From Halobacteria archaeon (GTDB taxonomy: Archaea > Methanobacteriota_B > Thermococci > Methanofastidiosales > NM3): a stretch of DNA of 64,000 nt. Under the pieces are notes generated by a model. That model worked only from the letters and a program-made list of their open reading frames with translations. It was not told the DNA's origin and did not search any database. The DNA lies in NCBI GenBank assembly GCA_036733165.1, contig DAINBB010000004.1:7198-71197 (forward strand), in the 5' to 3' direction. Below, piece by piece: positions 2,823 through 57,198 of this stretch (positions are counted from its first letter, which is position 1; each line of letters opens with the position of its first letter). The translations under genes were made by a program, and so were the position numbers.

Positions 2823-3527
2823 GTGAAGGGAGAATGCCTCATAAAAATGGAAAATGTCAGCTATTCCACCAATGGAAAGGACATAGTTAGCGATGTTGAC
2901 CTCTGTTTCAGGAAAGGTAGGACATATGCCATAGTAGGGCCTTCCGGATCTGGAAAGACAACTATAATGATGTTAATCAACGGGTTGATAAGCCCCACGG
3001 AGGGCAAGGTATCCTATAACGGCACCCCTCTTGAGGAGATGGAGATGCCCCATTACAGATCGCAGGTCCCAATGTTGTTCCAAGAACCGTTATTGCTGCC
3101 GGGAGATGGCAGGAAGAACATCATGCTCCCCTTCACCTTGGAAACGAACGTTGGCAAGGTCCCAACGGAGGAGGAGATTCGGGAAAAGATGCGATCATGC
3201 GGATTGGACGAAACATATCTTGATAAGGAGATATCCACGTTCTCTGGCGGTGAGAAACAGAGGTTGAGCCTTGTAAGGACCATACTGTTGAGGCCCGAGG
3301 CCATGCTTCTGGACGAACCCACATCGGCCCTTGATTCAAAATCTGAAAAGGACATAATCAACGTCATAAGGACGATGGCCAAGGAAACCTTGATGATATA
3401 TGTGACCCACTCCTATCAATTAATAGGCGCTGCTGATGATATCATAGTCGTGAAAGGCGGCAGGATATCAACCATCACGGACAGATTGGACAAGTCACGG
3501 CTCAGGGAAATATTGGAGGAGGTATGA
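2823..3527 (+). CDS. ABC transporter ATP-binding protein (FetA/YbbL-like)
   Basis: Walker A 'GPSGSGKTT', ABC signature 'LSGGEKQR', Walker B 'LLDEPTSALD'. Overlaps the downstream permease by 4 nt. Confidence 0.85.
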   Translation: MKGECLIKMENVSYSTNGKDIVSDVDLCFRKGRTYAIVGPSGSGKTTIMMLINGLISPTEGKVSYNGTPLEEMEMPHYRSQVPMLFQEPLLLPGDGRKNIMLPFTLETNVGKVPTEEEIREKMRSCGLDETYLDKEISTFSGGEKQRLSLVRTILLRPEAMLLDEPTSALDSKSEKDIINVIRTMAKETLMIYVTHSYQLIGAADDIIVVKGGRISTITDRLDKSRLREILEEV

Positions 3528-4315
3528 TGACATCACAGATAGTCGACATCTCATTGCTTAGGATGATGGCGTCTTACGGATTCGTCCTGGTCGTCCTTGC
3601 CCTGATAAGATTGAAAAGGATAGGTCTTGGCAGGGACCTCGTGACCGCAGTGATACGCATGACCGTCCAGCTCATAGTCATGGCCTTCATCCTTGAGATG
3701 ATATTTGACATGAGCCTGTGGTATGTGGTCATAGCGATGGAGATGGCCATATTCATCCTCGCCTCAAGGATCGTGCTCAGCAGGGTAAAGGCAAAGACCA
3801 GGAATCTTTCGAGGAACATATTAATATCGCTCCTATTGGGGGCGGGCTCCATAATGGCCTTCTTCATAGTGATTATTGTGGGACCGGACCCTCTATACGA
3901 CCCAAGGTATGTGATTCCGCTCGGTGGCATGATAATCGGAAACTCGATGAACGCCTGCGCAATAGCGTTCGAGAGATTCCATTCCCTGATGAAAAAGGAC
4001 AGAAAACTGATCCTCACGCTTCTTTCGCTGGGCGCTACAAGCACCGAAGCGACCTCCTCGCAGTTCAAGGAGGCCCTCAAGGCCGCATTCCTCCCGATAC
4101 TGATTACTATGACGGCAACGGGCATGGTCATACTGCCTGGCATGATGACGGGCCAGATACTGTCCGGAACATCTCCGTTGACGGCTGTCAAGTACCAGAT
4201 AGCCATTATGATGGGCATCACATCGAGCAACGCACTGGTGGCGTATCTCATCCTCTACTTGGAGAACGGGGAGTTCTTCAACAACAAACACCAATTCCTT
4301 CTCTCCGCAGATTGA
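3524..4315 (+). CDS. Membrane permease partner of the ABC ATPase (UPF0014/FetB-YbbM-like)
   Basis: 263 aa polytopic membrane protein translationally coupled to the ABC ATPase. Size and hydrophobicity pattern fit YbbM/FetB-type permeases. Confidence 0.6.
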   Translation: MMTSQIVDISLLRMMASYGFVLVVLALIRLKRIGLGRDLVTAVIRMTVQLIVMAFILEMIFDMSLWYVVIAMEMAIFILASRIVLSRVKAKTRNLSRNILISLLLGAGSIMAFFIVIIVGPDPLYDPRYVIPLGGMIIGNSMNACAIAFERFHSLMKKDRKLILTLLSLGATSTEATSSQFKEALKAAFLPILITMTATGMVILPGMMTGQILSGTSPLTAVKYQIAIMMGITSSNALVAYLILYLENGEFFNNKHQFLLSAD

Positions 4316-4401
4316 AGACATCTCATGCCATTATAGATGGGAAAATAGAGATCAAACAGATATTGTGATTAAAAAGAATAAACTTATATTTTTCTAAAAT
4401 C

Positions 4402-4437
4402 TAAGGATTATAACCTATTTTGAAAAATAAGGATTAT
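4402..4437. promoter_or_regulatory. Direct repeat TAAGGATTAT x2 (26 bp spacing) upstream of the ATPase gene
   Basis: Two exact 10-mers 'taaggattat' at ~4402 and ~4428 in the AT-rich leader, 20-55 bp upstream of the 4458 start codon. Possible operator or promoter element. Confidence 0.25.
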
Positions 4438-4457
4438 CACACAAGGGGTAAAAGCTC

Positions 4458-6971
4458 ATGGAACTCCCACCTGAAAAACTTGGTTCATTCTACATCGGAT
4501 CAGAATATGATATTGAAAGCGATAAGCTTCTTGGCATCCCCATAAACTATGACTCCAGGGACCTTACAACCCACGCCATCTGTTTCGGGATGACGGGAAG
4601 TGGAAAGACGGGCCTCTGCATAGGAATTCTGGAAGAAGCGGCCTTGGACAAGGTTCCGGCAATAATAATAGATCCCAAGGGGGACATCACCAATCTGCTG
4701 TTACAGTTCCCAGATCTCAAGAGCCAGGACTTCAGGCCCTGGGTAAATCCGGACGATGCCAGAAGAAAGGGAATGGACATCGATGAATACGCAGAATATA
4801 CATCAAAGACATGGGAAAACGGCCTAAGGGAGTGGGGAATAGATCGAAAAAGAATAAGGGACCTAGGCCTGAGCGTCGACTTTAGCATCTATACCCCGGG
4901 TTCCGATGCCGGCAGGCAGATAAGCATACTCGGCGGGCTTGCGCCTCCAGAGATAGATTTTCAAGAAAATATGGAGAACGTGAGGGAACAGATCAATGGA
5001 ACTGTGGCGGCATTGTTGGGCCTTATCGGTCTGGATGCAGACCCTCTAAGAAGCAAGGAGATGATATTGCTCACAAACATATTCGAGCATTACTGGAGCA
5101 AGGGGGAGGGTTTGGACATCGCCAGGCTGATAACTTCCATCCAGTCGCCGCCGTTCAAAAAGCTGGGAGTGTTCGACCTTGATACATATTATCCGGAGAA
5201 AGAAAGATTCGAACTGGCAATGGCATTGAACAGCCTAGTGGCATCCCCCAGCTTTGGGGAATGGTTGAGGGGGGAGGAACTCGATATAGGCAAGATGCTC
5301 TATGATGATAACGGCAAGCCTAGGCACACCATCTTCTATCTTGCCCACCTCACCGATGAGGAAAGGATGTTCTTTGTTACATTACTTCTGGAGAACATAT
5401 TGACATGGGCAAGGAAACAGAGCGGCACTACGAGCCTGAGAGCCTTGCTTTACTTTGATGAGATATATGGTTTCATGCCCCCTGTCGCCAAACCACCTTC
5501 AAAGGCGCCATTGATGACCCTTGTGAAGCAGGCCCGAGCCTTTGGACTGGGATTGATGATGGTAACGCAGAACCCAGTTGACATCGATTACAAGGGGCTT
5601 ACGAACATAGGCACATGGTTCATAGGGAAGCTTCAGGCCAAAAGGGATAAGGAAAAGGTGTTGGAGGGTCTTAAGGGGACATTGTCGCCAAAAGACATGG
5701 AAAGGGGCGTTGATTACGAGAATATCATTGACAGACTGAAGAGCAGGGTGTTCCTGATGCACAACGTCCATGAGGACGGACCGGTCATCTTCAACACCAG
5801 ATGGGTTATGAGCTATCTGAGGGGGCCGCTGACCAGGCCACAGCTTAAGAATCTCCTGAAGATGAATGGCAAGGAAGTAACGGTCCCGAAAGACGTGGAT
5901 GTGGCCACACCACCCGTTATCGAAAAATGGGATACCACATCCTCGCTCTCATCAAGGCCCTCACTTTCCCCGGACATAGACCAGATATTCCTGCCGATAA
6001 ATGTGGGACGGGGATCGGCAATGGATACGGTATATGAAAGTGTTGGACAGGATACGGACATCAAGGGCGTCTACATCCATTATGCACCACATATCCTGGG
6101 GGAGGCCCAAGTCCGTTTCTTTGACAAGAAGCGCGATATCGATGACCTTACAGAGGTCGCCATGATGATAGGGCCCGGGGAGAAGACGGATCTTGTGGAC
6201 TGGGGCAAGGCGGAAGAGCTCTCCATCGGTCCGGACAATATATTGAGCGAGCCAGAACTGCAGGCGGCTGGGGGTAATGTCCTCTATTCCAATGTGCCTG
6301 ACAGTGTCAACGACCCAAGGGAGATAAAAGGCTTGGAGAAGGAATTGTCCAATTGGCTGTACTACAATAAAAGATCGCTGATAAAGGAGCACAAAGGTCT
6401 TGAGATTTTCCAAAAACATGATGAATCCGAGAGGGACTTCCTGGTAAGGCTCCACCAGGCCGCCAGAGAAAGAAGAGACAAAGAGGTAGACAAGCTCAAG
6501 GATAGCTACGAGAAGAAGATTGACAAGCTGTCACAGAAACTTGATGATCTTGAGCTGGACCTAGAGTCAGACAAGGCAGAGTATGAGGCAAGGAAAAGGG
6601 AAGAGATGGTCGGCATGGGGGAGTCGGCACTTAGCTTCTTCATGGGCAGGAAAAGGACCAGCGGCATATCCACCATAGCCAGGAAGAGGAGGCTGACGGC
6701 CAAGGCCGGCCAGGATATAAAGGAAACCACCCAGGATATCGAACAGGTGAAGAATGACCTCTCCAAGTTAGAGTCGGAGCTTGAGACCGCCGTGAAGGAT
6801 ATCACTAAGAGATGGGAGAATGTCGAAGAGGATATCACAGACCTCGAGATCAGGCCAAGGAAGTCGGATGTGGACATCAGGATGATGGCCATTGCATGGA
6901 AACCTTACTGGAAGATGGAGTACGAGACCCGAAATGGAAGCGCCGTGACAGAAGTTGGAGCATATAAATAA
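4458..6971 (+). CDS. DUF853/YjgR-like HerA-FtsK superfamily P-loop NTPase with C-terminal coiled-coil extension
   Basis: Walker A 'GMTGSGKTG' followed by 'IIIDPKGD', Walker B 'LLYFDEIYGF'. 'VTQNPVDIDYKGLTNIGTWFIGKLQA' aligns with E. coli YjgR '[26 protein letters not shown]'. About 250 aa of C-terminal charged heptad-like sequence ('DKEVDKLKDSYEKKIDKLSQKLDDLELDLESDKAEYE'). Confidence 0.7.
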   Translation: MELPPEKLGSFYIGSEYDIESDKLLGIPINYDSRDLTTHAICFGMTGSGKTGLCIGILEEAALDKVPAIIIDPKGDITNLLLQFPDLKSQDFRPWVNPDDARRKGMDIDEYAEYTSKTWENGLREWGIDRKRIRDLGLSVDFSIYTPGSDAGRQISILGGLAPPEIDFQENMENVREQINGTVAALLGLIGLDADPLRSKEMILLTNIFEHYWSKGEGLDIARLITSIQSPPFKKLGVFDLDTYYPEKERFELAMALNSLVASPSFGEWLRGEELDIGKMLYDDNGKPRHTIFYLAHLTDEERMFFVTLLLENILTWARKQSGTTSLRALLYFDEIYGFMPPVAKPPSKAPLMTLVKQARAFGLGLMMVTQNPVDIDYKGLTNIGTWFIGKLQAKRDKEKVLEGLKGTLSPKDMERGVDYENIIDRLKSRVFLMHNVHEDGPVIFNTRWVMSYLRGPLTRPQLKNLLKMNGKEVTVPKDVDVATPPVIEKWDTTSSLSSRPSLSPDIDQIFLPINVGRGSAMDTVYESVGQDTDIKGVYIHYAPHILGEAQVRFFDKKRDIDDLTEVAMMIGPGEKTDLVDWGKAEELSIGPDNILSEPELQAAGGNVLYSNVPDSVNDPREIKGLEKELSNWLYYNKRSLIKEHKGLEIFQKHDESERDFLVRLHQAARERRDKEVDKLKDSYEKKIDKLSQKLDDLELDLESDKAEYEARKREEMVGMGESALSFFMGRKRTSGISTIARKRRLTAKAGQDIKETTQDIEQVKNDLSKLESELETAVKDITKRWENVEEDITDLEIRPRKSDVDIRMMAIAWKPYWKMEYETRNGSAVTEVGAYK

Positions 6972-7082
6972 AGGGAAAAAGGTATCCATCATCGGGGGTC
7001 CTCTTGATGTATGGGCCTCGATGTTTACATTTATATCAAGATAAATTATTGCTTACATAAATGTTAATTAAAAATATATGGT

Positions 7083-7105
7083 GGGATAAAAAAAGAAAAT
7101 ATCCC
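7083..7105. terminator. Hairpin (GGGATA-11 nt A-rich loop-TATCCC) between convergent genes
   Basis: Inverted repeat gggata/tatccc directly 3' of mscL (minus) and ~110 nt 3' of the ATPase gene (plus), in an AT/T-rich context. Confidence 0.3.
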
Positions 7106-7109
7106 ATGC

Positions 7110-7481
7110 TTATTCGATATTGAATCTCTTGGCTGCCTTGATGATGCCGAAAATGACAAGCATGATCACAAGGAATGTGAGAACTGCACCAAAGAAATGG
7201 CCTATCCTGAAAGGACCGAGCATGATAGCCTCCCAGCTTGAGGCATCGGGCACGACGTATTCCAGAAGCGGCATGATAAAATCATTTACGAGCGCTTGCA
7301 CAAGAGCCCCAAGATACATTGCTATGATAAAGGCCACGGCAAGACCCAGCAGCTTGTACTTCCTAATGAATTCCATAAACTCTTCCTGTATGCCCTTGGG
7401 CCCAGCTGGGGGAGCTGGCGGCTTGGGTGTCAGAAGTTCTCTAATCTGTTTTAATTCTTCAAGCATTTCCTCTTCTCGCAT
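7110..7481 (-). CDS. mscL: Large-conductance mechanosensitive channel MscL-like
   Basis: 'EFMEFIRKYKLLGLAVAFIIAMYLGALVQALVNDFIMPLL' aligns with the MscL TM1 core ('[40 protein letters not shown]'). Second TM plus short tail. Unusual N-terminal charged/Pro-rich 35 aa. Confidence 0.7.
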   Translation of the reverse strand: MREEEMLEELKQIRELLTPKPPAPPAGPKGIQEEFMEFIRKYKLLGLAVAFIIAMYLGALVQALVNDFIMPLLEYVVPDASSWEAIMLGPFRIGHFFGAVLTFLVIMLVIFGIIKAAKRFNIE

Positions 7482-7636
7482 TTGAAAACACCCCTAATCA
7501 AAGGATGGATGGGTATTGAATATTAACATTACTAAAAGAACCTTTCGATGTGGCGGAGATAGTATTATCATTTCCCAATATTAATTCTTAAGAGAGATTT
7601 ATATAATATAAATAGGAATTATAATTAGGGATCATT

Positions 7637-7819
7637 ATGGGAGGCAAGTTCGAATACTACAAGGACAAAGCGGGAAAGTACCGCTTCAGGTTGAAGGCCT
7701 CAAACGGCCAGGTTATTGCATCGGGAGAGGGATACAACTCCAAGGATGCATGCATCAACGGCATGGAGAGCGTCAAGAAGAACGCTCCCGATGCGCCAAT
7801 GGTGGAAGTTGAGGGATAG
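7637..7819 (+). CDS. DUF1508 (YegP-like) domain protein
   Basis: 60 aa: 'FEYYKDKAGKYRFRLKASNGQVIASGEGYNSKDACINGMESVKKNA' is the canonical YegP/UPF0339 repeat. Confidence 0.75.
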   Translation: MGGKFEYYKDKAGKYRFRLKASNGQVIASGEGYNSKDACINGMESVKKNAPDAPMVEVEG

Positions 7820-8040
7820 ATTCCCTCTTTTTCTATTTTGTCTTTAGAGTGTTTTTGATATCCGTTGGTAATCTAGAACCATTCAATACCAGAGCGATCC
7901 ATCTTGTCAAGATCCATGTTCCTATTTCCTCACATTTAAAATTCGGAGTTCAGGCGACAGGCCTTACTTGCACGAAAAATAAACATAAATATTATAAATG
8001 AATTTTCAAATGCCTATAATCAATATAGCATGGTGATAAC

Positions 8041-9639
8041 TTGAGCGAGCTTTTTTGGGCAGACAAATCGGCACAGCAGGTAATTGACAGGGACCCCGAA
8101 AGCGACATCTATGTCACGGAATGTGGACTTGGCGCATCTGGAATACCACATGTCGGCAGTTTGGGCGATGGCATAAGGTCCTATGTGGTGACCCTGGCCA
8201 TAGAGAACAAGGGAAAGAACTCCTTCTTCCAGGCCTACTCTGACGACAGGGACGGACTGAGAAAGATACCTTATGGTTTCCCATCCTCGCTCAAGGAATA
8301 CATCGGCAATCCCGTGTCCCACATCCCAGACCCCTTCGGTTGCCATGATTCGTTTGGGGCGCACATATCATCGCTGTTGACAGATGCCTTCGACAGGATA
8401 GGGATCGATTACAAGTTCCAGTCCAGCGACCAGGCATACAACAAAGGAATGCTGGACAGGGAGATAATGGAGCTCCTCTCCAAGCACAAGGAAGCTGGAC
8501 AGATCATCAAGGATGTCACAGACCAGGACAAGTACCTTACACAATATCCATACTTCGCAATATGCGAGGAATGCGGGAAGATATACACCACCAGGGTTAC
8601 AGGTTTCGATGAATCCAAGCGTACGGTCTCGTATGTCTGTGACGGGGAGTTCGTGGGCAAGGACTCCAACACAGGAGAGGACATCCATATCAAGGGCTGC
8701 GGCCACGAGGGAAAATGCGACATCAGGCAGGGCAAGCTTGCCTGGAAGGTGGAGTTCGCAGCGAGATGGAAGGCGTTCGACATTGCCTTCGAGGCGTTCG
8801 GCAAGGACATACTCGAATCGGTGAAGGTAAACGATGTGATCGAGGAGAAGCTGCTTTCGGCAAAGGCGCCGGTGCACGCATTCTACGAGATGTTCGTGGA
8901 GCGTGGAGGAGGCAAGATCTCCAAGTCCAAGGGTAATGTCTTCACTCCCCAGAAATGGCTTTCGTACGGAAGTCCTGACTCGCTGGTCCTCCTCATGCTG
9001 AAGAGGCTCGCGTATTCCAGGGTCGTCGACCTCTTGGAGATCCCCAAGCTCATGGACGAGGTGGACTATCTCCATGATGTCTACTTCAAGAAGGAGAAGG
9101 TCAACAACGAGAAGGAAAGAAGCCATCTGATAAGGATGTACGAGTACATAAAATTCCTTAATCTGCCCGATTCGCCCGGATTGACGATCCCCTACAACGT
9201 CGTGGCTAATGTCGCATCGGTCATACCCGTGGACACCCCCAACAGGGACGACATCATCATCAACATACTCAGAAACTGCGGAAAAATTCCCCAAGAGATA
9301 GATGAAGAGCATATGGGTGAGGCACTGAGGAGGATAGGATACGCAACGAACTGGTTGCAGGAAACTGGCGATGTAGAGAGGGAGAAGATCGAGATAGACC
9401 AAAGGGAGTCGGATGCGCTCTCTGTCCTGCTTGACACGCTTGATGACGGAATGGATGCCGAAAAGATACAAAACACCATATTCCAGACGGCAAAGGACCA
9501 TGATCTGAAACCTGCCAAGTTCTTCAAGCTGATATACTCCATACTCCTAGGCGTCCCAAGGGGGCCCAGGGCCGGAAGCCTTATCGAGACGATAGGGATG
9601 GAAAGGGCGAAGGAACTGATAAGGCAGGAACTAAACTAA
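8041..9639 (+). CDS. lysK: Lysine--tRNA ligase, class I (archaeal LysK type)
   Basis: HIGH-type motif 'SGIPHVGSLGDG' and KMSKS 'KISKSKG'. Zn-binding Cys cluster 'CEECG...CDGEF...CGHEGKC'. Apparent TTG start. Confidence 0.9.
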   Translation: MSELFWADKSAQQVIDRDPESDIYVTECGLGASGIPHVGSLGDGIRSYVVTLAIENKGKNSFFQAYSDDRDGLRKIPYGFPSSLKEYIGNPVSHIPDPFGCHDSFGAHISSLLTDAFDRIGIDYKFQSSDQAYNKGMLDREIMELLSKHKEAGQIIKDVTDQDKYLTQYPYFAICEECGKIYTTRVTGFDESKRTVSYVCDGEFVGKDSNTGEDIHIKGCGHEGKCDIRQGKLAWKVEFAARWKAFDIAFEAFGKDILESVKVNDVIEEKLLSAKAPVHAFYEMFVERGGGKISKSKGNVFTPQKWLSYGSPDSLVLLMLKRLAYSRVVDLLEIPKLMDEVDYLHDVYFKKEKVNNEKERSHLIRMYEYIKFLNLPDSPGLTIPYNVVANVASVIPVDTPNRDDIIINILRNCGKIPQEIDEEHMGEALRRIGYATNWLQETGDVEREKIEIDQRESDALSVLLDTLDDGMDAEKIQNTIFQTAKDHDLKPAKFFKLIYSILLGVPRGPRAGSLIETIGMERAKELIRQELN

Positions 9640-10427
9640 TACCTGTGGTCAAGGAAACTGTCAACAAGGTTGAGCTTCGAGAACCTGCCACGTGTGATGA
9701 ATGCCAGTGTCTCCTCCTTTCCCAGTATCCTGTCCCTTATCTCTTTTCTGGAAAATCCCCTTCCATCGAGTTCCAATACCGAATCTCCCATGGATGTCAG
9801 GTGTGATATCTTTTCCTCAATGACCTTGTCCGGCTCCTCGAACGGGCGGCCATGGCTGGGAAAGAGGATTTCTATGTCCAACTTCGATATTCGTTCCAAC
9901 GAGCCCATAGCATCGTATATGTTGACCTCGTCGCTGACCCATCTTGTCTTGCCCCACAGCACCAGATCGCCTGAGAAAAGATAGCGTTTCTCCGGCAGAT
10001 AGTAACCAACATGGTCATCGCTGTGGCCTGGCGTGTATATCTGCCTCACTTCAAATCCATCGCTCTCGACGGAATCGGGGAATATCGTGGGCTTTGAGGG
10101 CGCCACCCTGCCGGCGATGAAACACTCTATAAACGAGCTGTTGTCGGGGTCCTCCAGGCCCCTCACAGCATTCGCATGGCAATATATGGTGCAACTGTTC
10201 TGGTCCTGCACCACGGCATTGTTGCCCACGTGGTCATGGTGGCGATGCGATATGAATATGTTTTCTACCCCTCTGGACAGGGGCAGAATATCCGTACCCA
10301 TGTTTATCCCGGTGTCGAACATCGTGTTGCCAAATCTATAAACATTGGCGTTGAAAAGCGACCTCTTCAAGAACTTTTTTATCGTGATGTATCTCTCAAC
10401 ATCTCCATATTTCCTAATAGTTATCAT
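9636..10427 (-). CDS. Metallo-beta-lactamase fold hydrolase
   Basis: 'HRHHDHVG' (HxHxDH) plus downstream His/Asp ligands ('GHSDDH', 'SHG'). Convergent 4-nt overlap with lysK. Confidence 0.85.
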   Translation of the reverse strand: MITIRKYGDVERYITIKKFLKRSLFNANVYRFGNTMFDTGINMGTDILPLSRGVENIFISHRHHDHVGNNAVVQDQNSCTIYCHANAVRGLEDPDNSSFIECFIAGRVAPSKPTIFPDSVESDGFEVRQIYTPGHSDDHVGYYLPEKRYLFSGDLVLWGKTRWVSDEVNIYDAMGSLERISKLDIEILFPSHGRPFEEPDKVIEEKISHLTSMGDSVLELDGRGFSRKEIRDRILGKEETLAFITRGRFSKLNLVDSFLDHRY

Positions 10428-10549
10428 ATCAAGGAAAAAATTTACAATTTATTATAAAAAAGTTACCATTTCTAATCAATAACTTTATATAGCATATGAA
10501 ATTTAGCATAATGCAAAAACAAGCCAAAATGTGTTAAGGTGCCAAATGA

Positions 10550-12316
10550 ATGAGAAAGATAATTAGGAACCCAGACGATGATTATTATATAGAGTATTTG
10601 AAACCATATTACGTCCGAACGGCCGATGGTCAATACTTATTCGGGTGCACCCAACCCGGCAGGAGACCAGACAGGGCGTTCTATATGGTACCTGAAGATT
10701 ACAGACTTGGCTACGGTCAGAAATCCTTTCCCACCGACATCGGACAGAAGATATACAAGGTCGCGATGGACTACCTCGACAACGTCGACATAATAGTCCA
10801 GGACGTCATACAGGGCGAGGAGCCATACAAGACCGGCATGCAGATCACGACAAGCGTTGACTGCCCCCACGCGGCATACATACCTTGGATAGGGAGGCAT
10901 ATGACGTTCAAGCATGATGAACAGACGAAGTTCTCCTGTTTCAACTTCATCGTGCCAGAGATACTCCCAGAGGAGTATGCGGATAGGATAAGGGAGTTCT
11001 GGCCGGAATACGATCCCAAGGTTCCCCTCACACTCTACGACTTCACCAGGATGGACAAGGACGTCCGGAAGGTCCTGTCGCTGAGAGTCGACTACTTCGG
11101 GGGTGCCTACAAGAAACCCAATCTCACAATGGTCTGGAACCGCGGAGAGTCAGACGGCCTTGTTTCATACCACGGAGGATGCACCTCCAACAGGATAGTG
11201 AAGGGATTGAGCGGCACGGGCAAGACCACATTGACTGTCGGCCCGATGCTTGAACAGGACGACGCGCTCTTGGGAAAGATAAAGTACGATGAGGAAGGGA
11301 ACGCAAAGGGTCTCACGATCATAGGGCTCGAGGCGGCCAGTTTCGCCAAATCAGAAGGGCTTACACCCAAAAGCCCGGAGTGGGCAGGGCTCATGAGGGC
11401 GAAGGACACCATAGTCATTGCCATGAACATAGACTGCGAGAACGTGGAGTACGTGATGGAAAAGCACGGCGTCCACATGATAAAGGTGCCAAGGGTGGAT
11501 AAGGGAAAGAAGGCCGGAAAGCTCCAGACGACGCTGTATGAGAAGTCCGGGACCAAGAACGGCAGATTCATCTTCGACTTCTCCGCGCTTAATCCGGACT
11601 GGAACAAGAAGACAAAGTCCCTCAAGACGGAGGCTCTCGTGTTCAAGAGATTCAACACTGTCGAACCGATGTTCAGGGTCGTCGACCCGCGGATGGCCGT
11701 GGCGCTTGACAGCGCATGCGAATCCATCATAACCTCTGCCGTCTCCGGTAAGAAGGCCGGCTCCAAGGTCAGGTCATACGCCGCCACAGACTTCATGGCA
11801 AGGGAACAGGCGCAGCAGGCATTGTTGAAGTGGAAGATATATGAGGACCTGGACCTGTCGCTGAGCGGAGATCTGGTGTTCATCATACTCAACTCGGGGT
11901 ATGTTGGAAGGAACGACATTGAGGGCAACGCCCGCAAGGATGCCGATGGCAACCTCCTCGGAGAGAAGATAAGGGTGGAGGACAGCAAGAGAATCCTTGA
12001 GCTGATAGACAGCGAGGAGATCGACGAATGGATTGCGAATCCCATATTCGGATATCTCGTGCCAAACCCGAAGGAAATGGAGGAGAAAGGCATCGAGGGA
12101 TACTCGAAAAGATTCAACATGTTGAACCATTATTCCTCAGAGGAGCTGCTTCGGTTCGCCAATGACGACATTTTAGAGAGGTCGTCATATCTCAACGGTC
12201 TTTTCTCCAATCAGTTGAACGAGGGGGAGCTCAGGCCGATCATAGACTTCTGGAAGAACGTGAAGCTGCCGGACAAGAAGACGGTGGAAAGATTCTACAA
12301 GAAGAACTATTCATAG
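10550..12316 (+). CDS. Phosphoenolpyruvate carboxykinase (ATP)-like protein, divergent
   Basis: Contains the PEPCK(ATP) kinase-1a signature 'GLSGTGKTTLT' at the expected position. The C-terminal 'ANPIFGYLVPNPKE' resembles the PckA 'LPMFNLAIPTELPG' region. The rest is very divergent. Confidence 0.5.
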   Translation: MRKIIRNPDDDYYIEYLKPYYVRTADGQYLFGCTQPGRRPDRAFYMVPEDYRLGYGQKSFPTDIGQKIYKVAMDYLDNVDIIVQDVIQGEEPYKTGMQITTSVDCPHAAYIPWIGRHMTFKHDEQTKFSCFNFIVPEILPEEYADRIREFWPEYDPKVPLTLYDFTRMDKDVRKVLSLRVDYFGGAYKKPNLTMVWNRGESDGLVSYHGGCTSNRIVKGLSGTGKTTLTVGPMLEQDDALLGKIKYDEEGNAKGLTIIGLEAASFAKSEGLTPKSPEWAGLMRAKDTIVIAMNIDCENVEYVMEKHGVHMIKVPRVDKGKKAGKLQTTLYEKSGTKNGRFIFDFSALNPDWNKKTKSLKTEALVFKRFNTVEPMFRVVDPRMAVALDSACESIITSAVSGKKAGSKVRSYAATDFMAREQAQQALLKWKIYEDLDLSLSGDLVFIILNSGYVGRNDIEGNARKDADGNLLGEKIRVEDSKRILELIDSEEIDEWIANPIFGYLVPNPKEMEEKGIEGYSKRFNMLNHYSSEELLRFANDDILERSSYLNGLFSNQLNEGELRPIIDFWKNVKLPDKKTVERFYKKNYS

Positions 12317-12328
12317 TTCTTCATTCCT

Positions 12329-13306
12329 TTATCCCCTTATCAGCAGCATCGCGATATATATTATGTAAAGGGCCAAGAGCACCATGCCCTTCGGCCGCCT
12401 TATCATGCTCTCGACACCCATATGGACCATGACCAGAAACACGGTCGTCGCCACGATCACCAGCAACATGTCCAGGAGAAGGGAATCCATTATTGGTATG
12501 GGAGTAACGATGCTGGACATCCCGAGGACCCAGAGGATGTTGAAGATGTTGGACCCGACTATGTTTCCCACAGCGATGTCACAATTCTTTTTGAATGCTG
12601 CTATCAGGCTGGTAGCAAGCTCGGGCAGCGATGTGCCGAAGGCGACTATGGTCGAACTTATCAATATCTCCGATATGGAGAGGTTTCTCGCAAGCGCCAC
12701 GGCGTTGTCGACTATCAGTTCCCCCCCTATATAGAGGGCGACCACGCCTGCGGATATGAACAGTAAGGACTTCGGAAATCCGTAGTCCGCCTCATATACC
12801 TGCTCATCAAGTATCTCGTCCCTGGACCTCCTAAGGATGAAGAAGAGGAAGAGCAAAAAACCGATCAAGAGCACAATACCGTCAAAACGGGAAATTATGT
12901 TGGTCTGTCCGCCAAGGATTATCACGTCACTTGCCAACACCAGCAAGAGCACTGAAGAGAAGAGGGCGTATGGGATGTCCCTGGTCTTGGCGTAACGATT
13001 GACGTCCAGAGGCATTATCATCGCCGTCACTCCCACTATGAGCAGTATGTTCGCCATGTTGCTACCTATGATGTTTCCCACAGCTATGTCGGTGCTGCCC
13101 TTGAGGGCGGATATCATGTTCACTATGAACTCCGGCAGCGATGTGCCGAAGGCGACGATCGTGAGTCCTATTATGAAGTAGGACACTCCGAACCTTTGGG
13201 CGATGTAAGAAGAGCCCTTTATCAAGTAATCCGCGCCCTTCACCAACATTATGAATCCGATCGCTATCAAAAACAATTCCATGTACATGGGATACATTAC
13301 TATCAA
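12329..13306 (-). CDS. Na+/Ca2+ exchanger (CaCA family, YrbG-like)
   Basis: Two alpha-repeats 'GTSLPEFIVNMISALKG' and 'GTSLPELATSLIAAFKK', each followed by 'DIAVGNI(I/V)GSN'. About 10 TM segments. Confidence 0.9.
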   Translation of the reverse strand: MIVMYPMYMELFLIAIGFIMLVKGADYLIKGSSYIAQRFGVSYFIIGLTIVAFGTSLPEFIVNMISALKGSTDIAVGNIIGSNMANILLIVGVTAMIMPLDVNRYAKTRDIPYALFSSVLLLVLASDVIILGGQTNIISRFDGIVLLIGFLLFLFFILRRSRDEILDEQVYEADYGFPKSLLFISAGVVALYIGGELIVDNAVALARNLSISEILISSTIVAFGTSLPELATSLIAAFKKNCDIAVGNIVGSNIFNILWVLGMSSIVTPIPIMDSLLLDMLLVIVATTVFLVMVHMGVESMIRRPKGMVLLALYIIYIAMLLIRG

Positions 13307-13403
13307 AACATATCAGGATAAATACTTTCTTCATGAAACATGGCGTTCATCCATTGGCCGACATTCGAAGTAATTTTATATATGTGCCAAATTATTATCA
13401 ACA

Positions 13404-14939
13404 ATGTCAAAAAAAGCTAGAGATATATGGGAGCGATTTCAAGGAGGGGGAAAGATATCCATCGGCAGGCCATCCATATGGATCCTTGTCGCATTGGCAG
13501 CCGTCCTGTCCTTGTGCTACTATGTCAGGCCATGGTTCCACGGACTTATCATTGGCCTCTACAGGGCCCCTCTGGTAATGATGTTCCTATTTGCGATATT
13601 TCTCTTTATAATGATGAATCTTTTCATGTACAGCCAACTTGAGAAGACCAGGAACAGGGACACCGCAAGATATGAGAGATATCAAAGGATCAGGAAGGGC
13701 CTGACCGCCCTGGTGGTCATATTTATCATTGCGCTCGTCCCCCTATACATGTATAGCGGATACTACATGGACCGTACACTATATGAGAACACAGATTATA
13801 TCTACATCGAATCGATGCCTGAGACGAACCTGATACGCTTCCTGCCCTTTTCCGTGGCGGAGAGGTACTCGTTGGACGCCTTCACAGACCCCCAATACAC
13901 GCTGGGCGATGGCGATCTTGTGAAGCAGGACGGAAGGCTTTACTGGAACTTCCCCATCGTGCCGGAAGGCACCATCCTCTACTTCACGAAAAAACCCCAG
14001 GGTGTCATCTCCATCAGCGCCGACAACAGTGAGAAGGAGATAAGCACCAACATGTCGGAGATGGACATAGGTGAGAACATCGGCATAACAGATGGCATAG
14101 AATGGAACATCTACAAACAGGACATGTTCTGTGACATCGCCGACATCTACTATCAGGACGACCTGATAATTGTCTCGGTCATCAAGTACAAGTTCAAGCT
14201 CATTGGCAGGTATCCATACTTCGGCGGCGTCTATACGATAGACTTCGATGGCAACATAGAGTATTATGATCCGGAGGAGGCCGCCGAACAGCCATGGGGA
14301 AACAGGATTTATCCAGAATCCCTAGCCAGAAAACAGATAGAGGTCGTGAACACCAAGAACGGCCTTGTCAACATGTGGATCTATCATGAGGAGATGATAG
14401 AGATACAGGACGTGTACAGCGGAGGGAACGTCCAGCCCTTTCTGCTCGATACGGAGGACGGACTCGTTTGGATGACGGCGGTCGAGCCCAGAGGGGAGAG
14501 CTTTGGCCTGTACGAACTGTACTTCCAAAGCGCGGTGGATGGCAAGATATACGTTTACAGGGTGTCCTCGGAGAACCTCACAGGTCCAAGGTACTCCATA
14601 GACTACGTCAAGAAGACGTTCCCCAACTTCGACTGGAACTCGTTCTACATATCAGAACCGAGGCCCATCATAAAGGAAGAGCAACTCTTTTGGCTGGTAT
14701 CCATCGTTCCGTATGATTCCGCAGGCGTCACGAAACAGTGCGTGGTCAATGCCAAGACCAGCGAGGTCACCTCCTTCGAGTCGGATGAGGATGTGTTGGC
14801 GTTCTTTGCGGGGGACGTGCCTGGCACTCCGGACGGGGAAGACATAACCATAGAGGATATCCTTGAGATGATCGACGAACTGGAGACCATGATAGAGGAG
14901 CTAAGGACATTGCTGGAGCAATACGAATCCGAGGGATAG
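13404..14939 (+). CDS. Hypothetical membrane-anchored protein (3 N-terminal TM helices, large extracytoplasmic domain, acidic coiled-coil C-terminus)
   Basis: No recognisable catalytic motif. The N-terminal ~120 aa are hydrophobic. C-terminus 'EDILEMIDELETMIEELRTLLEQYESEG'. Its stop lies 1 nt before the start of the AAC(3)-like gene. Confidence 0.5.
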   Translation: MSKKARDIWERFQGGGKISIGRPSIWILVALAAVLSLCYYVRPWFHGLIIGLYRAPLVMMFLFAIFLFIMMNLFMYSQLEKTRNRDTARYERYQRIRKGLTALVVIFIIALVPLYMYSGYYMDRTLYENTDYIYIESMPETNLIRFLPFSVAERYSLDAFTDPQYTLGDGDLVKQDGRLYWNFPIVPEGTILYFTKKPQGVISISADNSEKEISTNMSEMDIGENIGITDGIEWNIYKQDMFCDIADIYYQDDLIIVSVIKYKFKLIGRYPYFGGVYTIDFDGNIEYYDPEEAAEQPWGNRIYPESLARKQIEVVNTKNGLVNMWIYHEEMIEIQDVYSGGNVQPFLLDTEDGLVWMTAVEPRGESFGLYELYFQSAVDGKIYVYRVSSENLTGPRYSIDYVKKTFPNFDWNSFYISEPRPIIKEEQLFWLVSIVPYDSAGVTKQCVVNAKTSEVTSFESDEDVLAFFAGDVPGTPDGEDITIEDILEMIDELETMIEELRTLLEQYESEG

Positions 14940-30800: not shown

Positions 30801-31065
30801 TATTTTTCAATCCTCAACAATAATTTTTCTAGTTAATATAGATCGATTTTGTTAATTCATAGGGATGACTATCTTTTGGTGATGGGCCTTGGAAATTATC
30901 AATAACAGATGATAATATTACATATGATATGCATCATGAGAATATATATTATTTATTTAACATGGATGTATTATCCATCCGCCTTACATGTACGGGAGAG
31001 ACTATAAGTTGCTCCAAATCAATCACTTCGTAGAAAAACAATTTTTAGAACTTAGGAGGAATAAT

Positions 31066-31719
31066 ATGTCAGAAAAAGAGCTTTTCGCAAAGCTTAACAC
31101 AGCCGTCGTCAAGGGAGACAACGTCGGTATCCAGGGCATCTGCAAAGAGGTCCTGGACAGTGGGGTCGACCCCTACCGCGCCCTCATCGAAGGCTGTGCC
31201 GAGGGAATGAGGGTCGTCTCGGACAAGTACGACAAGAAAGAGATGTTCGTACCTCAGATCCTTCTCTCGTCAAGGGCCATGTACGCCGCGATGGACGTGC
31301 TCAAGCCCCATATAGAGACGGACGAGACCACCGTCACGGGCAAGATCGTCCTCGGCACCGTGGAGGGCGACATCCACGACATAGGGAAAAACATCGTCAA
31401 GCTGCTGCTCGAGGTGGCCGGATTCGAGGTCTTCGACCTCGGAAGGAGCGTACCGCTCCAGAGCTTCGTCGAGACGGCGAGGGAGAAGAGCGCGGACATC
31501 ATAGGGATGTCGGCCCTGATGTCGACGTCCATGCTCGGCATGCCCGAAGTCATAGAGATGCTCAAGAACGCGGGGATACGCGACCAGGTCAAGGTCATGA
31601 TAGGCGGGGCCCCGATAACCGAGCAGTACAAGGACAAGATAGGGGCCGACGGATTCGCCACCAACGGTCCGGGGGCGATAAAGCTGGCAGAGGGCCTGAT
31701 GAAGGAGAAGGGGGCGTGA
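31066..31719 (+). CDS. Methyltransferase cognate corrinoid protein (MtaC/MtbC/MtsB-like, B12-binding)
   Basis: B12-binding 'D-x-H-x-x-G' motif 'VEGDIHDIGKN', 'GMSALMS', N-terminal helical cap. RBS 'aggagga' before the ATG at 31066. The gene is visibly GC-richer (~60%) than its flanks. Confidence 0.85.
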   Translation: MSEKELFAKLNTAVVKGDNVGIQGICKEVLDSGVDPYRALIEGCAEGMRVVSDKYDKKEMFVPQILLSSRAMYAAMDVLKPHIETDETTVTGKIVLGTVEGDIHDIGKNIVKLLLEVAGFEVFDLGRSVPLQSFVETAREKSADIIGMSALMSTSMLGMPEVIEMLKNAGIRDQVKVMIGGAPITEQYKDKIGADGFATNGPGAIKLAEGLMKEKGA

Positions 31720-31722
31720 AGT

Positions 31723-32778
31723 ATGGAGGTATCCCAGAGATGGCTCAGCTTCCTCAGGGGCGAGGAGGTCGACAGACCGCCGGTCTTTCCTTTATCACAG
31801 GGGCACTGTGCCAAGATCATGGGCGCGCCCAATCTCGGTGACTACTATACAAAACCAAAGTTCAATGTAGAGGCGCAGATTATAGCACGAGAGATGTATG
31901 GCTATGACCAGCCACCAACTTTCATAGAGCCAGGATATGGGTGCGAATGTTGGGGGGGCAAGGTCCTACAACCATACAATCCAAAGATGGGGGCTCCGGT
32001 ACCTATTAGGCCCGCCTGTCTGACACCAGAAGAGTTGGAGAAGGTCGACATACCAGACCCAAGGACAGCAAGTTGGATGCCAGAGTATAGGGAAATGATG
32101 AGACTGGCAATTGAGAAGAATCAGAAACCATACCCCATCATACCTGGAGGCTTCATTTCAACGACAGCGCCGATGTTAGTCCCAATGGAGACCTTTATGA
32201 TATGGTTGATGGAAGCACCAGACCTAGCCCACAAGGCGCTTTCAAAAACGGCGGAATTCGGAATATCCCTGGTCGAGTCCTTTGTAGAGGACTTTGGCAA
32301 CGATACATGGTATCCATTTGAAGGCACGCCGACCGACTCCAATGTGTTGATAGATCCAAACATGTTCGCTGAATTCCCCTTGAGATATGCCAAAAGGCTA
32401 AATGAGAAAATAGTGGACATGGGCCTGTCCATATGGATACACTGGTGCTCAGACCATAGTGGCAACATGAAGGCGGGACATGTGCATAGCATGCCTGTTG
32501 GGCCGGAAGGATTCATAAATATGGGTCCAGAGGTTCCAATGGATGTCCAGGCTGAAAAGCTGGGAGATAAATACAGACTAGTCGGAAATATCAATCCGCC
32601 TCTCATTATGTCTGCCGAGTTCGATGAATGGCAAGACATATGCCTCAAGAATATCGAGGAAGGCACAAAGGCAAAGATGGGATACGCGCTTGGCGTGGGT
32701 TGCGAACTTCCACCGCCGGCCCCTCCGTCAAATGTGTTCGGCATGGTCAAGGCAGCAGAGGAATATGGAAGACGTTGA
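31723..32778 (+). CDS. Methylcobamide:CoM methyltransferase-like protein (MtaA/MtbA/MtsA family, URO-D fold)
   Basis: 'RWLSFLRGEEVDRPPVFPL' aligns with the MtaA N-terminus 'RLLAALKGEPVDKVPVCSV'. Zn ligands conserved ('IHWCSDH', 'GVGCELPPP'). 3 nt after the corrinoid gene stop. Confidence 0.8.
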   Translation: MEVSQRWLSFLRGEEVDRPPVFPLSQGHCAKIMGAPNLGDYYTKPKFNVEAQIIAREMYGYDQPPTFIEPGYGCECWGGKVLQPYNPKMGAPVPIRPACLTPEELEKVDIPDPRTASWMPEYREMMRLAIEKNQKPYPIIPGGFISTTAPMLVPMETFMIWLMEAPDLAHKALSKTAEFGISLVESFVEDFGNDTWYPFEGTPTDSNVLIDPNMFAEFPLRYAKRLNEKIVDMGLSIWIHWCSDHSGNMKAGHVHSMPVGPEGFINMGPEVPMDVQAEKLGDKYRLVGNINPPLIMSAEFDEWQDICLKNIEEGTKAKMGYALGVGCELPPPAPPSNVFGMVKAAEEYGRR

Positions 32779-32848: not shown

Positions 32849-33175
32849 CTAGATGGTGTCGTAATACTTGGAAAAGGTATTTGACATGCGTTCTATTCCT
32901 CTTCCGCTCATGGTGCCGGCCAATGGGAATTCCTGATCGCATTTTGGGCATCTGGCCAATTTACATCCCGAGGCTGATCTTGCACACCCGGAACATGCTA
33001 TCGCCCTGCCGTAAATTATGTTGAAAACAAAACCACATTTCGGACATTTCAGAGTTTTGGAAGATTCCGGTACATTGATTCCCTTAGATGTCCTCATCTT
33101 GTCAATGAATCGGTCATAGTATGCAGGATCCCTATATTCTGTATTTTCAATCTTCTTCATGGATCTTGTTTTCAT
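32849..33175 (-). CDS. Zinc-ribbon protein, hypothetical
   Basis: 'CPKCGFVFN...CSGCARSASGCKLARCPKCDQEF': three CxxC pairs. No other motif. Confidence 0.45.
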   Translation of the reverse strand: MKTRSMKKIENTEYRDPAYYDRFIDKMRTSKGINVPESSKTLKCPKCGFVFNIIYGRAIACSGCARSASGCKLARCPKCDQEFPLAGTMSGRGIERMSNTFSKYYDTI

Positions 33176-33279: not shown

Positions 33280-33651
33280 CTAAAAAAATAGATAGGTCAA
33301 GGGACCTTTACGAGGTTTGTATATGCCAGCACGTTCTCCAAAGGCGTCCTTGGGGACAGACCACAGCCCGGCGCCAGCACCCTCTACACCGTCATCTATG
33401 CATTGCTGCGCCTCCGCCTCAACAGTAAGACAAAATGGCACTCTGACGCTCCCTATACCTGCATGTTCCCATGCGCCATAGGCAAGGTCTGCCATCTTAT
33501 TGGCGTTCTTGTGGGCATCCGGCCAATATGACCCCGTCTTTTCCATGAGAGATACAGTACCAGTCTGGAGGGGACAACTGCAGGAGACCCTATCTGTTTC
33601 CTTCCCTTCGAGGGTTCTGATATATCTTTCCTTGGGTGATAGTTTATCCAT
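33280..33651 (-). pseudogene. Truncated N-terminal fragment of a canonical MtaA/MtbA-type methylcobamide:CoM methyltransferase
   Basis: 'LSPKERYIRTLEGKETDRVSCSCPLQTGTVSLMEKTGSYWPDAHKNANKMADLAYGAWEHAGIGSVRVPFCLTVEAEA' is collinear with M. barkeri MtaA residues ~5-100 ('LKTRLLAALKGEPVDKVPVCSVTQTGIVELMD...WPEAH...VRLPYCLTVLVEA'). The ORF stops after 123 aa, and there is no room for the remaining ~220 aa. Confidence 0.6.
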
Positions 33652-33779: not shown

Positions 33780-34793
33780 TCATTTTTCTATTCTAGAAAA
33801 ACTGCCTAACACTACCAATGACCTAACGCTCAATTGGCCCAGCCACTCATCGTAGGCACTCGCCATCTGGCCCGAGTATATCTCATTGCCCCAGTGGGGT
33901 TTGATAATTCCATCCTTCCTGAGCATATCGATAATATAGTCAAGATTGCGGTCTATTGCGTCATCCCCTAAGCCAAATCTATTTGAATTTGAAGTTGGAA
34001 CAAAGTCCAGGGGGCGCGGATTGTACCTGTCCCATTTGTCGGCATCAAGGCATACCAGTTGCTCCACAGCCTTCGTGATGTCATTTTCGAAAAGTGTCGA
34101 AATGCGCTCTGGAAGTGCTTCGTACAGTCTGATGTAGCAATATAGTTCATGTGGGGAACTGTATTCCTGCCTTCCCCTAAATTTTTCAAGCGCCACATTC
34201 ACCAACGCATCCACATCAAGCGTGTCGACAAGGTCCCTGTACCCATAGATGTAACCTATAAGCTCCGCAGACGGATTTCCCCAATGCTCGTCGATCGCTG
34301 TCATCTCCTTGTTGTTGTCATAATGCCACCACGGGGCATGCGGGTGAAGATTGACATAGGGAGGAACGGCGAGCCACCCTTCCCTGGCCATGTCAAAGGT
34401 GCATTCAAGATAGTCAATGGCAGAAAGTGCCATAGATTCGGTCGCTTCCCTGTCAGGAAGAGAGTAAAGTATCCTGAGGGCAATAGATGTGGCCATGGCG
34501 GAGGATGACGGCAGGCGGAAGTCAGGTTCCAAAGCGTTCCCAAAACCGCCATCGCGATTCTGATATTGGGATAGGCACTCAATGACACCCTCGCTTTCCA
34601 GACCATGGAAATGATGGTCGAAAATGGCCTTGTCAATGTCCCTGGCAACTCCTTTTATCTGCTCTTCCGCTTGTTCAAACTGTTCCCTTGATAACATCAA
34701 CAACTCACTCACCTCTTGAAAGGACACGATAGATGGTAACGTTGGATAGAGCAACACCTTGCCCCTGTGACCGATTTTTTTTATATTGTACAT
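33780..34793 (-). CDS. Hypothetical protein with prenyltransferase/terpene-cyclase-like repeat (alpha/alpha-toroid?)
   Basis: 'QNRDGGFGN' resembles the Q-x-x-D-G-G-(F/W)-G repeat of prenyltransferase beta subunits and squalene cyclases. The likely start is the internal Met ('MLSREQ', ~34697). Confidence 0.3.
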   Translation of the reverse strand: MYNIKKIGHRGKVLLYPTLPSIVSFQEVSELLMLSREQFEQAEEQIKGVARDIDKAIFDHHFHGLESEGVIECLSQYQNRDGGFGNALEPDFRLPSSSAMATSIALRILYSLPDREATESMALSAIDYLECTFDMAREGWLAVPPYVNLHPHAPWWHYDNNKEMTAIDEHWGNPSAELIGYIYGYRDLVDTLDVDALVNVALEKFRGRQEYSSPHELYCYIRLYEALPERISTLFENDITKAVEQLVCLDADKWDRYNPRPLDFVPTSNSNRFGLGDDAIDRNLDYIIDMLRKDGIIKPHWGNEIYSGQMASAYDEWLGQLSVRSLVVLGSFSRIEK

Positions 34794-56106: not shown

Positions 56107-57198
56107 TTATTTTTTCATGTTTTTCCATATCAGATTGGCGAGGTCCACGGTGTCGATCTCTATGTTCTCCGCCTCCTTGATAGTGTCAAGATGATACAGG
56201 CAGAACGGACAATACGACACTATGCAGTCGGTCCCCTCGGCCCTGTCGAGGGACACCTTCCCTATGGCGTTGGATATCTCCGGAAAGTTGGGTTTTACGC
56301 CGGCGGGCGCGCCGCAACAGAATATCTTGCCATCAAATGGTTCGTCGACATCATAACCCATGGCAACCAATAGTTCCCTCGGCACATCAAATATGTCCTT
56401 CATTGGGCATGGATCCCTGATGCTCACCCTGCCAGAGGACTTCTTTAATTTTATCTTGCCCTCGTCGAACAATTGCTTGAAAAGCTCAACGGCGTATATG
56501 ACCTCATAGTTTGGCTCCCTGTAGAGCCCGGGATAGATGTCCTTGATGACCTTGTAGCATGCGGGGCAGGATACCAATAGCTTCTTCACGCCTTGGGACT
56601 CTATGCAGTCGGTGTATTCCTTCGCATATTGTTTGATCTCGTCCATATGCCCATTGTCAATGAGGAAGAGTCCGCAACACCTCTCGTCCTTCAGCAGCAT
56701 GGGCTTTATACCACAGGCATTGAGGATGCGAACAGTGTCCTGTGCTATGCTTACGTTTCTCAGAGTTACCCAGCATCCGGCCATGTATGTCAGTTCGGGG
56801 TCATCTGAGAACTTCAGGTCGTCGGTGGCCCACATCTCCGCCCTGTTGGGGATGTCCATACCCTTGGGATTATACTTTGTGAATATGTTGTTCGCAATGT
56901 GTTTTGTCTTTTCAGGTTCCCTGCCCTGGTCCGCAAGCAGCTTACGTTCGTACTGTATTATGCCATAGATGTCAATGCTCTCCGGGCATACATCGTTGCA
57001 TACCCCGCAACGGGAACAAAGATAGACCGTGTCTAACTCGTCCTGGGTGAGCTCTTCGTTGTTCTCTATCTTTTCCAATTGCTTGATCTTGTTGTTGGGC
57101 GTGTATATATCCTTATCAGAAACAAAACAGATCGGACAGATGCTGCCGCATTCGCCGCATTCTGTACACATGTTCACTTGATCCAAATAACTAGACAT
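56107..57198 (-). CDS. hdrD: HdrD/GlpC-like Fe-S oxidoreductase (two 4Fe-4S ferredoxin motifs + two CCG domains)
   Basis: 'CTECGECGSICP' and 'CSRCGVCNDVCP'. CCG motifs 'ERCCGLF' and 'IFCCGAP', with further Cys in each half. Confidence 0.7.
   Translation of the reverse strand: MSSYLDQVNMCTECGECGSICPICFVSDKDIYTPNNKIKQLEKIENNEELTQDELDTVYLCSRCGVCNDVCPESIDIYGIIQYERKLLADQGREPEKTKHIANNIFTKYNPKGMDIPNRAEMWATDDLKFSDDPELTYMAGCWVTLRNVSIAQDTVRILNACGIKPMLLKDERCCGLFLIDNGHMDEIKQYAKEYTDCIESQGVKKLLVSCPACYKVIKDIYPGLYREPNYEVIYAVELFKQLFDEGKIKLKKSSGRVSIRDPCPMKDIFDVPRELLVAMGYDVDEPFDGKIFCCGAPAGVKPNFPEISNAIGKVSLDRAEGTDCIVSYCPFCLYHLDTIKEAENIEIDTVDLANLIWKNMKK

Follow-up and report, generated by a model that had tools for sequence, protein, structure and literature searches.

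The window analysed here is a stretch of 64,000 nucleotides (nt) of contig DAINBB010000004.1, from an archaeon of the Methanofastidiosales, and the system in question is a pair of adjacent genes near its middle. The first gene encodes a corrinoid carrier protein; the second, which begins 3 nt further on (stop at 31719, start at 31723), encodes a divergent methyltransferase of the uroporphyrinogen decarboxylase (URO-D) fold (Table 1). The initial annotation of this DNA had described the same arrangement. It assigned the second gene to the MtaA family, and saw in the pair a possible uncharacterised system for methylated thiols, or other methyl substrates, and coenzyme M (CoM), with no gene for a substrate-specific methyltransferase (MT1) beside it. 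Our data agree with the gene order and with the absence of the usual MT1 genes, and favour a different enzymatic reading of the pair.

The open reading frame (ORF) of the corrinoid protein extends from 30988 to 31719 and offers a longer start at 30988. Translation almost certainly begins at ATG 31066, because AGGAGG (31054–31059) stands 6 nt upstream, orthologs start there and the entry HPR41333.1 has 217 amino acids (aa). Pfam finds both B12 domains (B12-binding_2, 71 bits; B12-binding, 93 bits), and the His-on motif reads G-D-I-H-D-I-G-K-N, its DxHxxG core being invariant in nine orthologs. Both domains and the core point to membership in the methyltransferase-cognate corrinoid proteins, for which the model TIGR02370 gives 214.8 bits, marginally under its cut-off of 215.3. 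MtbC and MtgC models score higher (184–192 bits) than MtaC models (119–127 bits), and none of the MtbC, MtgC and MtaC equivalog cut-offs is reached.

Table 1. Features of the window and of homologous loci. Coordinates are those of the sequence named in the second column.
Feature	Sequence	Coordinates	Strand	Basis or remark
Corrinoid (B12-binding) carrier protein, 217 aa	window	31066–31719	+	B12-binding_2 and B12-binding (Pfam); His-on motif
Divergent zinc-type URO-D-fold methyltransferase, 351 aa, putative MT1	window	31723–32778	+	Pfam URO-D; probable zinc site H240, C242, E270, C327
Small Cys-rich zinc-ribbon protein, 108 aa	window	32849–33175	-	weak zinc-ribbon matches only; downstream of mtaA remnant
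Pseudogene remnant, cognate canonical MtaA-type MT2	window	33280–33651	-	tblastn; synteny with L020
337-aa ORF	window	33780–34793	-	no Pfam or NCBIfam match
HdrD-like protein	window	56107–57198	-	Fer4_8 and two CCG domains
Zinc-ribbon homolog	L020	1447–1758		81% identity (L020/L022)
Zinc-ribbon homolog	L017	9121–9357		43% identity
Zinc-ribbon homolog	L069	1000–1227		43% identity
Zinc-ribbon homolog	L085	1041–1301		39% identity
MtaA-type MT2 after the pair	L013	9086–10099
Pair locus without MtaA	L002	1324–4278		closest relative of window URO-D protein
Pair locus without MtaA	L003	2255–3223		closest relative of window URO-D protein
Tandem array of pairs	L007 (MSDW01000001.1)	3103–14785		Candidatus Methanohalarchaeum thermophilum
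Third kind of URO-D-family protein, 376 aa	L011	4703–5833		'Thermoplasmata' MAG UBA9212

Exact sequence matches assign the window proteins to a 'Candidatus Methanofastidiosa archaeon' metagenome-assembled genome (MAG). The second protein is HPR41334.1 at NCBI, where its sole annotation is 'uroporphyrinogen decarboxylase family protein'. It matches Pfam URO-D (PF01208) over its full length (residues 5–348) with 122.1 bits against a gathering score of 23.9; with such strong family matches of both genes, chance is no issue. The models of canonical methyl-corrinoid:CoM methyltransferases (MT2) score far lower: 60.6 bits for TIGR01463 (MtaA/CmuA; cut-off 235.4), 59.5 for NF004889 (244), 42.8 for the MtaA model NF040654 (400) and 32.5 for the MtbA model NF041608 (600). 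Genuine MtaA genes in related MAGs, for comparison, reach 388–426 bits. The divergence noticed in the initial annotation is thus real, and with scores far under all family cut-offs a canonical MtaA or MtbA is ruled out. In a crude neighbour-joining tree (distance-based, midpoint-rooted) the family falls together with URO-D2, as we call another paralog from Methanofastidiosum, and with many unnamed representatives, apart from the canonical MT2 clade and not tightly within MtaA/MtbA.

The only solved relative retrieved by sequence search is MtaA of Methanosarcina mazei (4AY7, 44 bits). It is also the best Foldseek match of an AlphaFold2 (AF2) model built from a 26-sequence alignment (predicted local distance difference test score 94.8), with a template modelling (TM) score of 0.82–0.85 at 19–21% identity; HemE structures follow (TM ~0.77). 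By Pfam match and model the protein is a TIM-barrel member of the URO-D superfamily. An alignment of 26 members of the family shows no variation at H240, C242, E270 or C327, and H240/C242, E270 and C327 align with the HxC, E and C zinc-site residues of 4AY7. The His-x-Cys...Glu...Cys ligands of MtaA/MetE-type zinc thiol methyltransferases are therefore kept, and the earlier remark on conserved zinc ligands stands, H240, C242 and C327 included. The clade can be told by its signature H-W-C-S-D-H / G-C-E-L-P-P, canonical MT2 having H-I-C-G / P-G-C-G. A profile of the family gives 105 bits on 4AY7 versus 42 bits on CdmB or plant HemE. We rejected a HemE identity: MtaA is the nearer match, and the protein possesses both the zinc site and a partner that binds corrinoid. 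An O-demethylase or CdmB type as nearest kin was rejected on the same profile scores.

No MtaB, MtmB, MtbB or MttB Pfam family was detected within ±10 kb of the pair or in the other large window ORFs scanned. Homologous loci, given here by L numbers, show which partners the pair has in relatives. In L021 a single operon holds the genes for the corrinoid protein, the divergent URO-D protein, MtaA and a RACo/RamA-type protein, beside a NiFe hydrogenase. In the Methanofastidiosum loci L013, L012, L010 and L009 a canonical MtaA (388 bits; cut-off 244) comes after the pair, and L013 and L012 carry a second, divergently transcribed operon with a corrinoid protein, URO-D2, MtaA (426 bits; cut-off 400) and a RamA-like activase. 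The set of MT1 candidate, corrinoid protein, MT2 and RamA is complete in L021, L013, L012 and L010, while the window holds an MT2 remnant and RamA was not found in it. In L023–L025 one MtaA lies between two modules of corrinoid protein and divergent methyltransferase; several paralogous modules with one common MT2 are the usual pattern of MT1 enzymes. Because the CoM methylase and the activase are already present in the operons of relatives, the divergent URO-D protein is the only candidate left for MT1. It appears to take the place of the MT1 in a three-component system, a position that MtpA of Methanosarcina acetivorans also has.

An MT2-like fold with a zinc site could also belong to a divergent MT2 isozyme acting between methyl-corrinoid and CoM only, or to a thiol methylase of anabolism, for instance a corrinoid-dependent enzyme resembling methionine synthase; anaerobes do have core methionine synthases that work with corrinoid proteins (PMC7857596). 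We consider this very improbable. The protein shares an operon with a canonical CoM methylase and RamA in L021, and were its function that of an MT2 only, the system would have no MT1 at all, in a lineage for which none besides is reported. Several paralogous pairs in one genome would be unusual for a housekeeping enzyme, and Pfam finds no Meth_synt_2 match in the protein.

Among cultured organisms, the nearest relatives of the MtaA-type MT2 that follows the L013 pair are found in Methanosarcina sp. MTP4, whose paralogs AKB25385.1 and AKB25374.1 (49–53%) hardly differ from each other, ordinary MtaA being ~38–45% identical to it. Methanosarcina sp. MTP4 was isolated on methanethiol/dimethylsulfide (DMS). 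MtsA of Methanosarcina barkeri does not appear by name among the listed homologs of the Methanofastidiosa MtaA or of the MTP4 paralog.

The initial annotation used a nearby mtaA fragment for comparison, and ascribed to it the string 'VPVCSVTQTG'. That string is from M. mazei MtaA; the fragment reads 'RVSCSCPLQTGT'. The fragment does exist, and by synteny it is the decayed cognate MT2 of this very locus. Codons 1–81 are joined in frame to approximately codon 300, so that ~218 codons are deleted, with 'AEA'/GAGGCGGAGGC microhomology at the junction. The HxC motif went with the deletion, and a frameshift precedes the APGCG zinc-ligand motif. By tblastn aa 1–84 lie at 33651–33400 and aa 310–334 at 33380–33306 in a different frame. 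At the same syntenic position L020 has an intact 336-aa MtaA ortholog. The gene order of L020/L022 is that of the window: corrinoid protein (90% identity), URO-D protein (62%) and then, on the opposite strand, zinc-ribbon protein (81%), MtaA, a 306-aa unknown (57%), GlmS (79%) and a GT4 glycosyltransferase (69%). A contig from a second assembly (JGI, L001) is 99.995% identical to the window over 21 kb and has the same remnant. An assembly artefact was rejected on these grounds: two separate lesions common to two assemblies make this a real pseudogene.

Taken together, these data lead us to favour, with somewhat better than even confidence, a reading of the pair as the MT1 and carrier module of a methyl-substrate:CoM system whose MT2 is supplied in trans. 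The sequences show what the genes are, how closely they are coupled, that the pair is conserved, which MT2 and activase partners it has in relatives and that the MT2 beside it has decayed here; its function as MT1, the way in which the methyl group travels and the donor are inferred. The system would serve the H2-dependent methyl-reducing methanogenesis of Methanofastidiosa. The URO-D-fold zinc enzyme would pass the methyl group of a small methylated compound to Co(I) of its corrinoid partner, an MT2 of the canonical MtaA type, encoded separately, would transfer it to CoM, and a RamA/RACo-type activase would repair oxidised Co(II). The donor would most probably be a methyl thioether or thiol, for example methanethiol, DMS or methylmercaptopropionate (MMPA). 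Such a donor is favoured by the zinc site, which is of the MtaA/MetE type, and by what has been published on this lineage.

The decayed MT2 beside an intact pair could be read in another way, with the URO-D protein as a bifunctional MtsA-like enzyme that performs both substrate-to-corrinoid and corrinoid-to-CoM transfer, so that the pair alone is complete. This is the sense in which the initial annotation drew its analogy with MtsA/MtsB and MtpC/MtpA. M. barkeri MtsA/MtsB is a precedent (10.1101/548461; PMC7374477), the zinc site is of the thiol type, and the pair occurs without adjacent MtaA in L002/L003, L004–L006 and Methanohalarchaeum. We find bifunctionality unlikely all the same. A canonical MT2, redundant for a bifunctional enzyme, is co-operonic in most Methanofastidiosales loci, and Candidatus (Ca.) Methanohalarchaeum HMET1 encodes one elsewhere (P0431); the URO-D protein itself is distant from the canonical MT2 family. 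According to the supplement of PMC10654671, KEGG mtsA is callable in no Methanofastidiosales genome. It should be noted also that MtpA, predicted to be bifunctional by like logic, proved otherwise (10.1101/548461). The paired organisation therefore survives from the analogy, whereas bifunctionality is less well supported, with MtaA and RamA/RACo added in relatives and MtpA acting as MT1 only.

For an MT1 and carrier module, MtpC/MtpA of M. acetivorans is the closer parallel. MtpA is an MT2-family protein, encoded after its corrinoid protein, and is a dedicated MMPA:cob(I)alamin MT1 that needs a separate MT2 (10.1101/548461). The window pair has the gene order and the tight coupling of such a module. 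It differs in that its methyltransferase lies far outside the canonical MT2 family and in that no mtpP/msrH-like transporter or regulator genes stand beside it. MtsA/MtsB likewise is a two-gene unit of an MT2-like zinc methyltransferase and a corrinoid protein, and is the source of the 'MtsA' label used for Methanofastidiosa. In M. barkeri, as Paul and Krzycki reportedly described in 1996, mtsA comes before mtsB, whereas the corrinoid gene is first in the window. The relatives of the window pair have in addition their own canonical MT2, and the window corrinoid protein is MtbC/MtgC-like, not MtaC-like. With MtaA/MtbA (4AY7) the window protein shares fold and HxC..E..C zinc site, but it is always corrinoid-coupled and its 43–61 bits on TIGR01463, NF004889 and the MtaA model compare with cut-offs of 235–400. 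Finally, the type I methyltransferases (MTIs) of the UroD superfamily known from acetogens and archaea (MtoB, MtvB/OdmB/VdmB, CdmB, CmuA) are URO-D-fold MT1 enzymes encoded beside a corrinoid protein, with MT2 and activase in the cluster (PMC13222342; PMC8630106). They hand the methyl group to a pterin-type MT2, unlike the system proposed here, and CdmB has no zinc. That MTIs are recruited from this superfamily more generally (PMC13222342) agrees with the MT1 reading of the window protein.

The physiology behind this proposal is not new. The class Methanofastidiosa was defined by a predicted reduction of methylated thiols via an 'MtsA' homolog, dependent on H2 and inferred to be its only way of life (Nobu 2016, as cited in PMC7382037; PMC10654671 with its Supplementary Note 1; PMC12724199; 10.1101/548461), and PMC7382037 and the PMC10654671 supplement report no other methyl-substrate routes and in situ expression of the methylthiol-reduction genes in metatranscriptomes. 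A methylated-thiol:CoM system, as put forward in the initial annotation, is accordingly plausible but has been predicted for the lineage since 2016 (PMC7382037, PMC10654671, 10.1101/548461). Nobu's 'MtsA' (KYC51554.1), which comes from the same lineage with the same proposed physiology, could stand for the divergent URO-D protein or else for the product of the MtaA-type gene beside it; the accession was not found in the protein clusters examined. The PMC10654671 supplement adds that the KEGG mtsA/mtaA profiles co-annotate Methanosarcina MtsA and call no mtsA in Methanofastidiosales. Most likely, then, the pair forms that half of the predicted route from methyl sulfides to methane which captures the substrate. 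What we add is an MT1 assignment drawn from the operons of relatives, the decay of the cognate MT2, the occurrence of the family beyond Methanofastidiosa and a caveat on the substrate.

The family is small. The URO-D protein has 32 relatives among 5.8 billion proteins; among 1.84 billion representatives at 50% identity there are 25 at E ≤ 1e-30 and 192 at E ≤ 1e-10 (genomes were scanned with a profile from a 13-sequence alignment). Named carriers are Methanofastidiosum MAGs (including 'Thermococci' MAGs), one 'Thermoplasmata' MAG, one Nitrososphaerota MAG and Ca. Methanohalarchaeum thermophilum. The order of corrinoid protein and then divergent URO-D protein is kept in every homologous locus examined, be it from Methanofastidiosales, 'Thermoplasmata', Methanohalarchaeum or Nitrososphaerota. 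Ca. Methanohalarchaeum thermophilum has at least five copies of the family, three of them in one tandem array.

A tandem array in L007 comprises four pairs of corrinoid and URO-D-family proteins and is interrupted by genes for a 682-aa molybdopterin oxidoreductase and a Gpr1/Fun34/YaaH-type membrane protein, with ArsP nearby. The oxidoreductase is under the cut-off of every model; its best match is Fdh-alpha, with weaker ones to thiosulfate, nitrate and DMSO-type reductases. Two more pairs stand alone elsewhere in the Methanohalarchaeum genome (L014, L016), and their neighbours gave no hint of the substrate.

The two proteins of the pair are not conserved to the same degree. Against L020 the window corrinoid protein is 90% identical (over its C-terminal 111 aa) and the URO-D protein just 62%; the latter is nearer to L003 (69%), whose corrinoid protein is 81% identical. 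Either the methyltransferase evolves faster than its corrinoid partner or it may have been exchanged. A faster substrate-side protein would suit an MT1 for a donor other than a thiol; methoxylated compounds, methyl halides and methylated metalloids or onium compounds are examples. The UroD superfamily does contain O-demethylases (MtoB, MtvB, OdmB, VdmB), haloalkane MTIs (CdmB, CmuA, MecE) and uncharacterised clades (PMC13222342), and the distribution in Methanohalarchaeum and Methanonatronarchaeum does not follow the use of methyl sulfides (PMC9796771). Yet the profile gives 105 bits with MtaA and far less, 42 bits, with CdmB, and enzymes of thiolate chemistry typically have a zinc site like the invariant HxC...C found here, CdmB having no zinc (PMC13222342). 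A non-thiol donor thus looks rather doubtful to us.

A broader version of this thought, that the H-W-C ... G-C-E-L-P-P clade and the wider unnamed clade form a distinct family of corrinoid-dependent MT1 enzymes whose donor might be neither methanethiol nor DMS, is in our opinion a long shot. If true, the defining substrate of Methanofastidiosa would be mis-assigned, as would the role of at least five Ca. Methanohalarchaeum modules, and some methylated compound would feed methane formation by a path so far overlooked.

Several observations count against the assignment of the pair as an MT1 and carrier module for methyl sulfides with MT2 in trans. The zinc motif is common to MT2 enzymes and so does not tell an MT1 from an MT2 or from a bifunctional enzyme. 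MtbC/MtgC, not MtaC, are the closer likeness of the corrinoid protein, whereas MtsB was placed beside MtaC, as its sister, in one study (PMC9635834). The neighbouring MT2 gene has decayed to a pseudogene, and neither a further MT2 nor a RamA was found within the 64-kb window; the pair must therefore use genes elsewhere or work without them. No intact MtaA of the same MAG (HPR accession block) was seen among the cluster members examined, a metagenome scan with P0062 gave no match, and in an alignment-based metagenome scan for intact MtaA no contig from the sample of the window was among the best 80. Two further points are weaker. HMET1 carries the most copies of the family, yet sediments of the neutral salt lakes that harbour Ca. 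Methanohalarchaeum formed no methane from methyl sulfides (PMC9796771). Also, no named match from the mercaptan-using Methanonatronarchaeum AMET6-2 is among the family matches, though AMET6-2 is in the protein database (PMC9796771).

The matter bears on more than one locus. Methanofastidiosa are uncultured and widespread in digesters, landfills, oil reservoirs and sediments, and their predicted energy metabolism rests wholly on this gene family, to which standard pipelines give no label beyond 'uroporphyrinogen decarboxylase family protein'. With the corrinoid and divergent URO-D pair as a probable MT1 module, the adjacent MtaA as its MT2 and the substrate taken as a prediction, the methyl-sulfide-to-methane claim would become testable, and the same assignments would allow better annotation of methyl-reducing methanogens. 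The decayed MT2 of the window, in turn, cautions against reading an active pathway from marker genes alone.

Other genes around the pair are of minor interest. Homologs of the zinc-ribbon protein (~105 aa) adjoin clusters of corrinoid and URO-D proteins, with or without MtaA, in several unrelated contigs, and the protein could be an accessory or regulatory component. The 337-aa ORF immediately precedes the mtaA remnant on the strand they share, is kept at the same position in L020 (306 aa, 57%) and may form one transcript with mtaA and the gene of the zinc-ribbon protein. In L002 and L003, whose URO-D proteins are the closest to that of the window (69%), the pair is followed not by MtaA but by a 472-aa NapH/NosR-like Fer4_5 protein and a 496-aa protein without a family match. 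In L011 a third kind of URO-D-family protein (TIGR01463 180 bits, under the cut-off) stands between the pair and a canonical MtaA. Further away in the window, the HdrD-like protein is a candidate heterodisulfide-reductase-type component, consistent with the genome of a methanogen.

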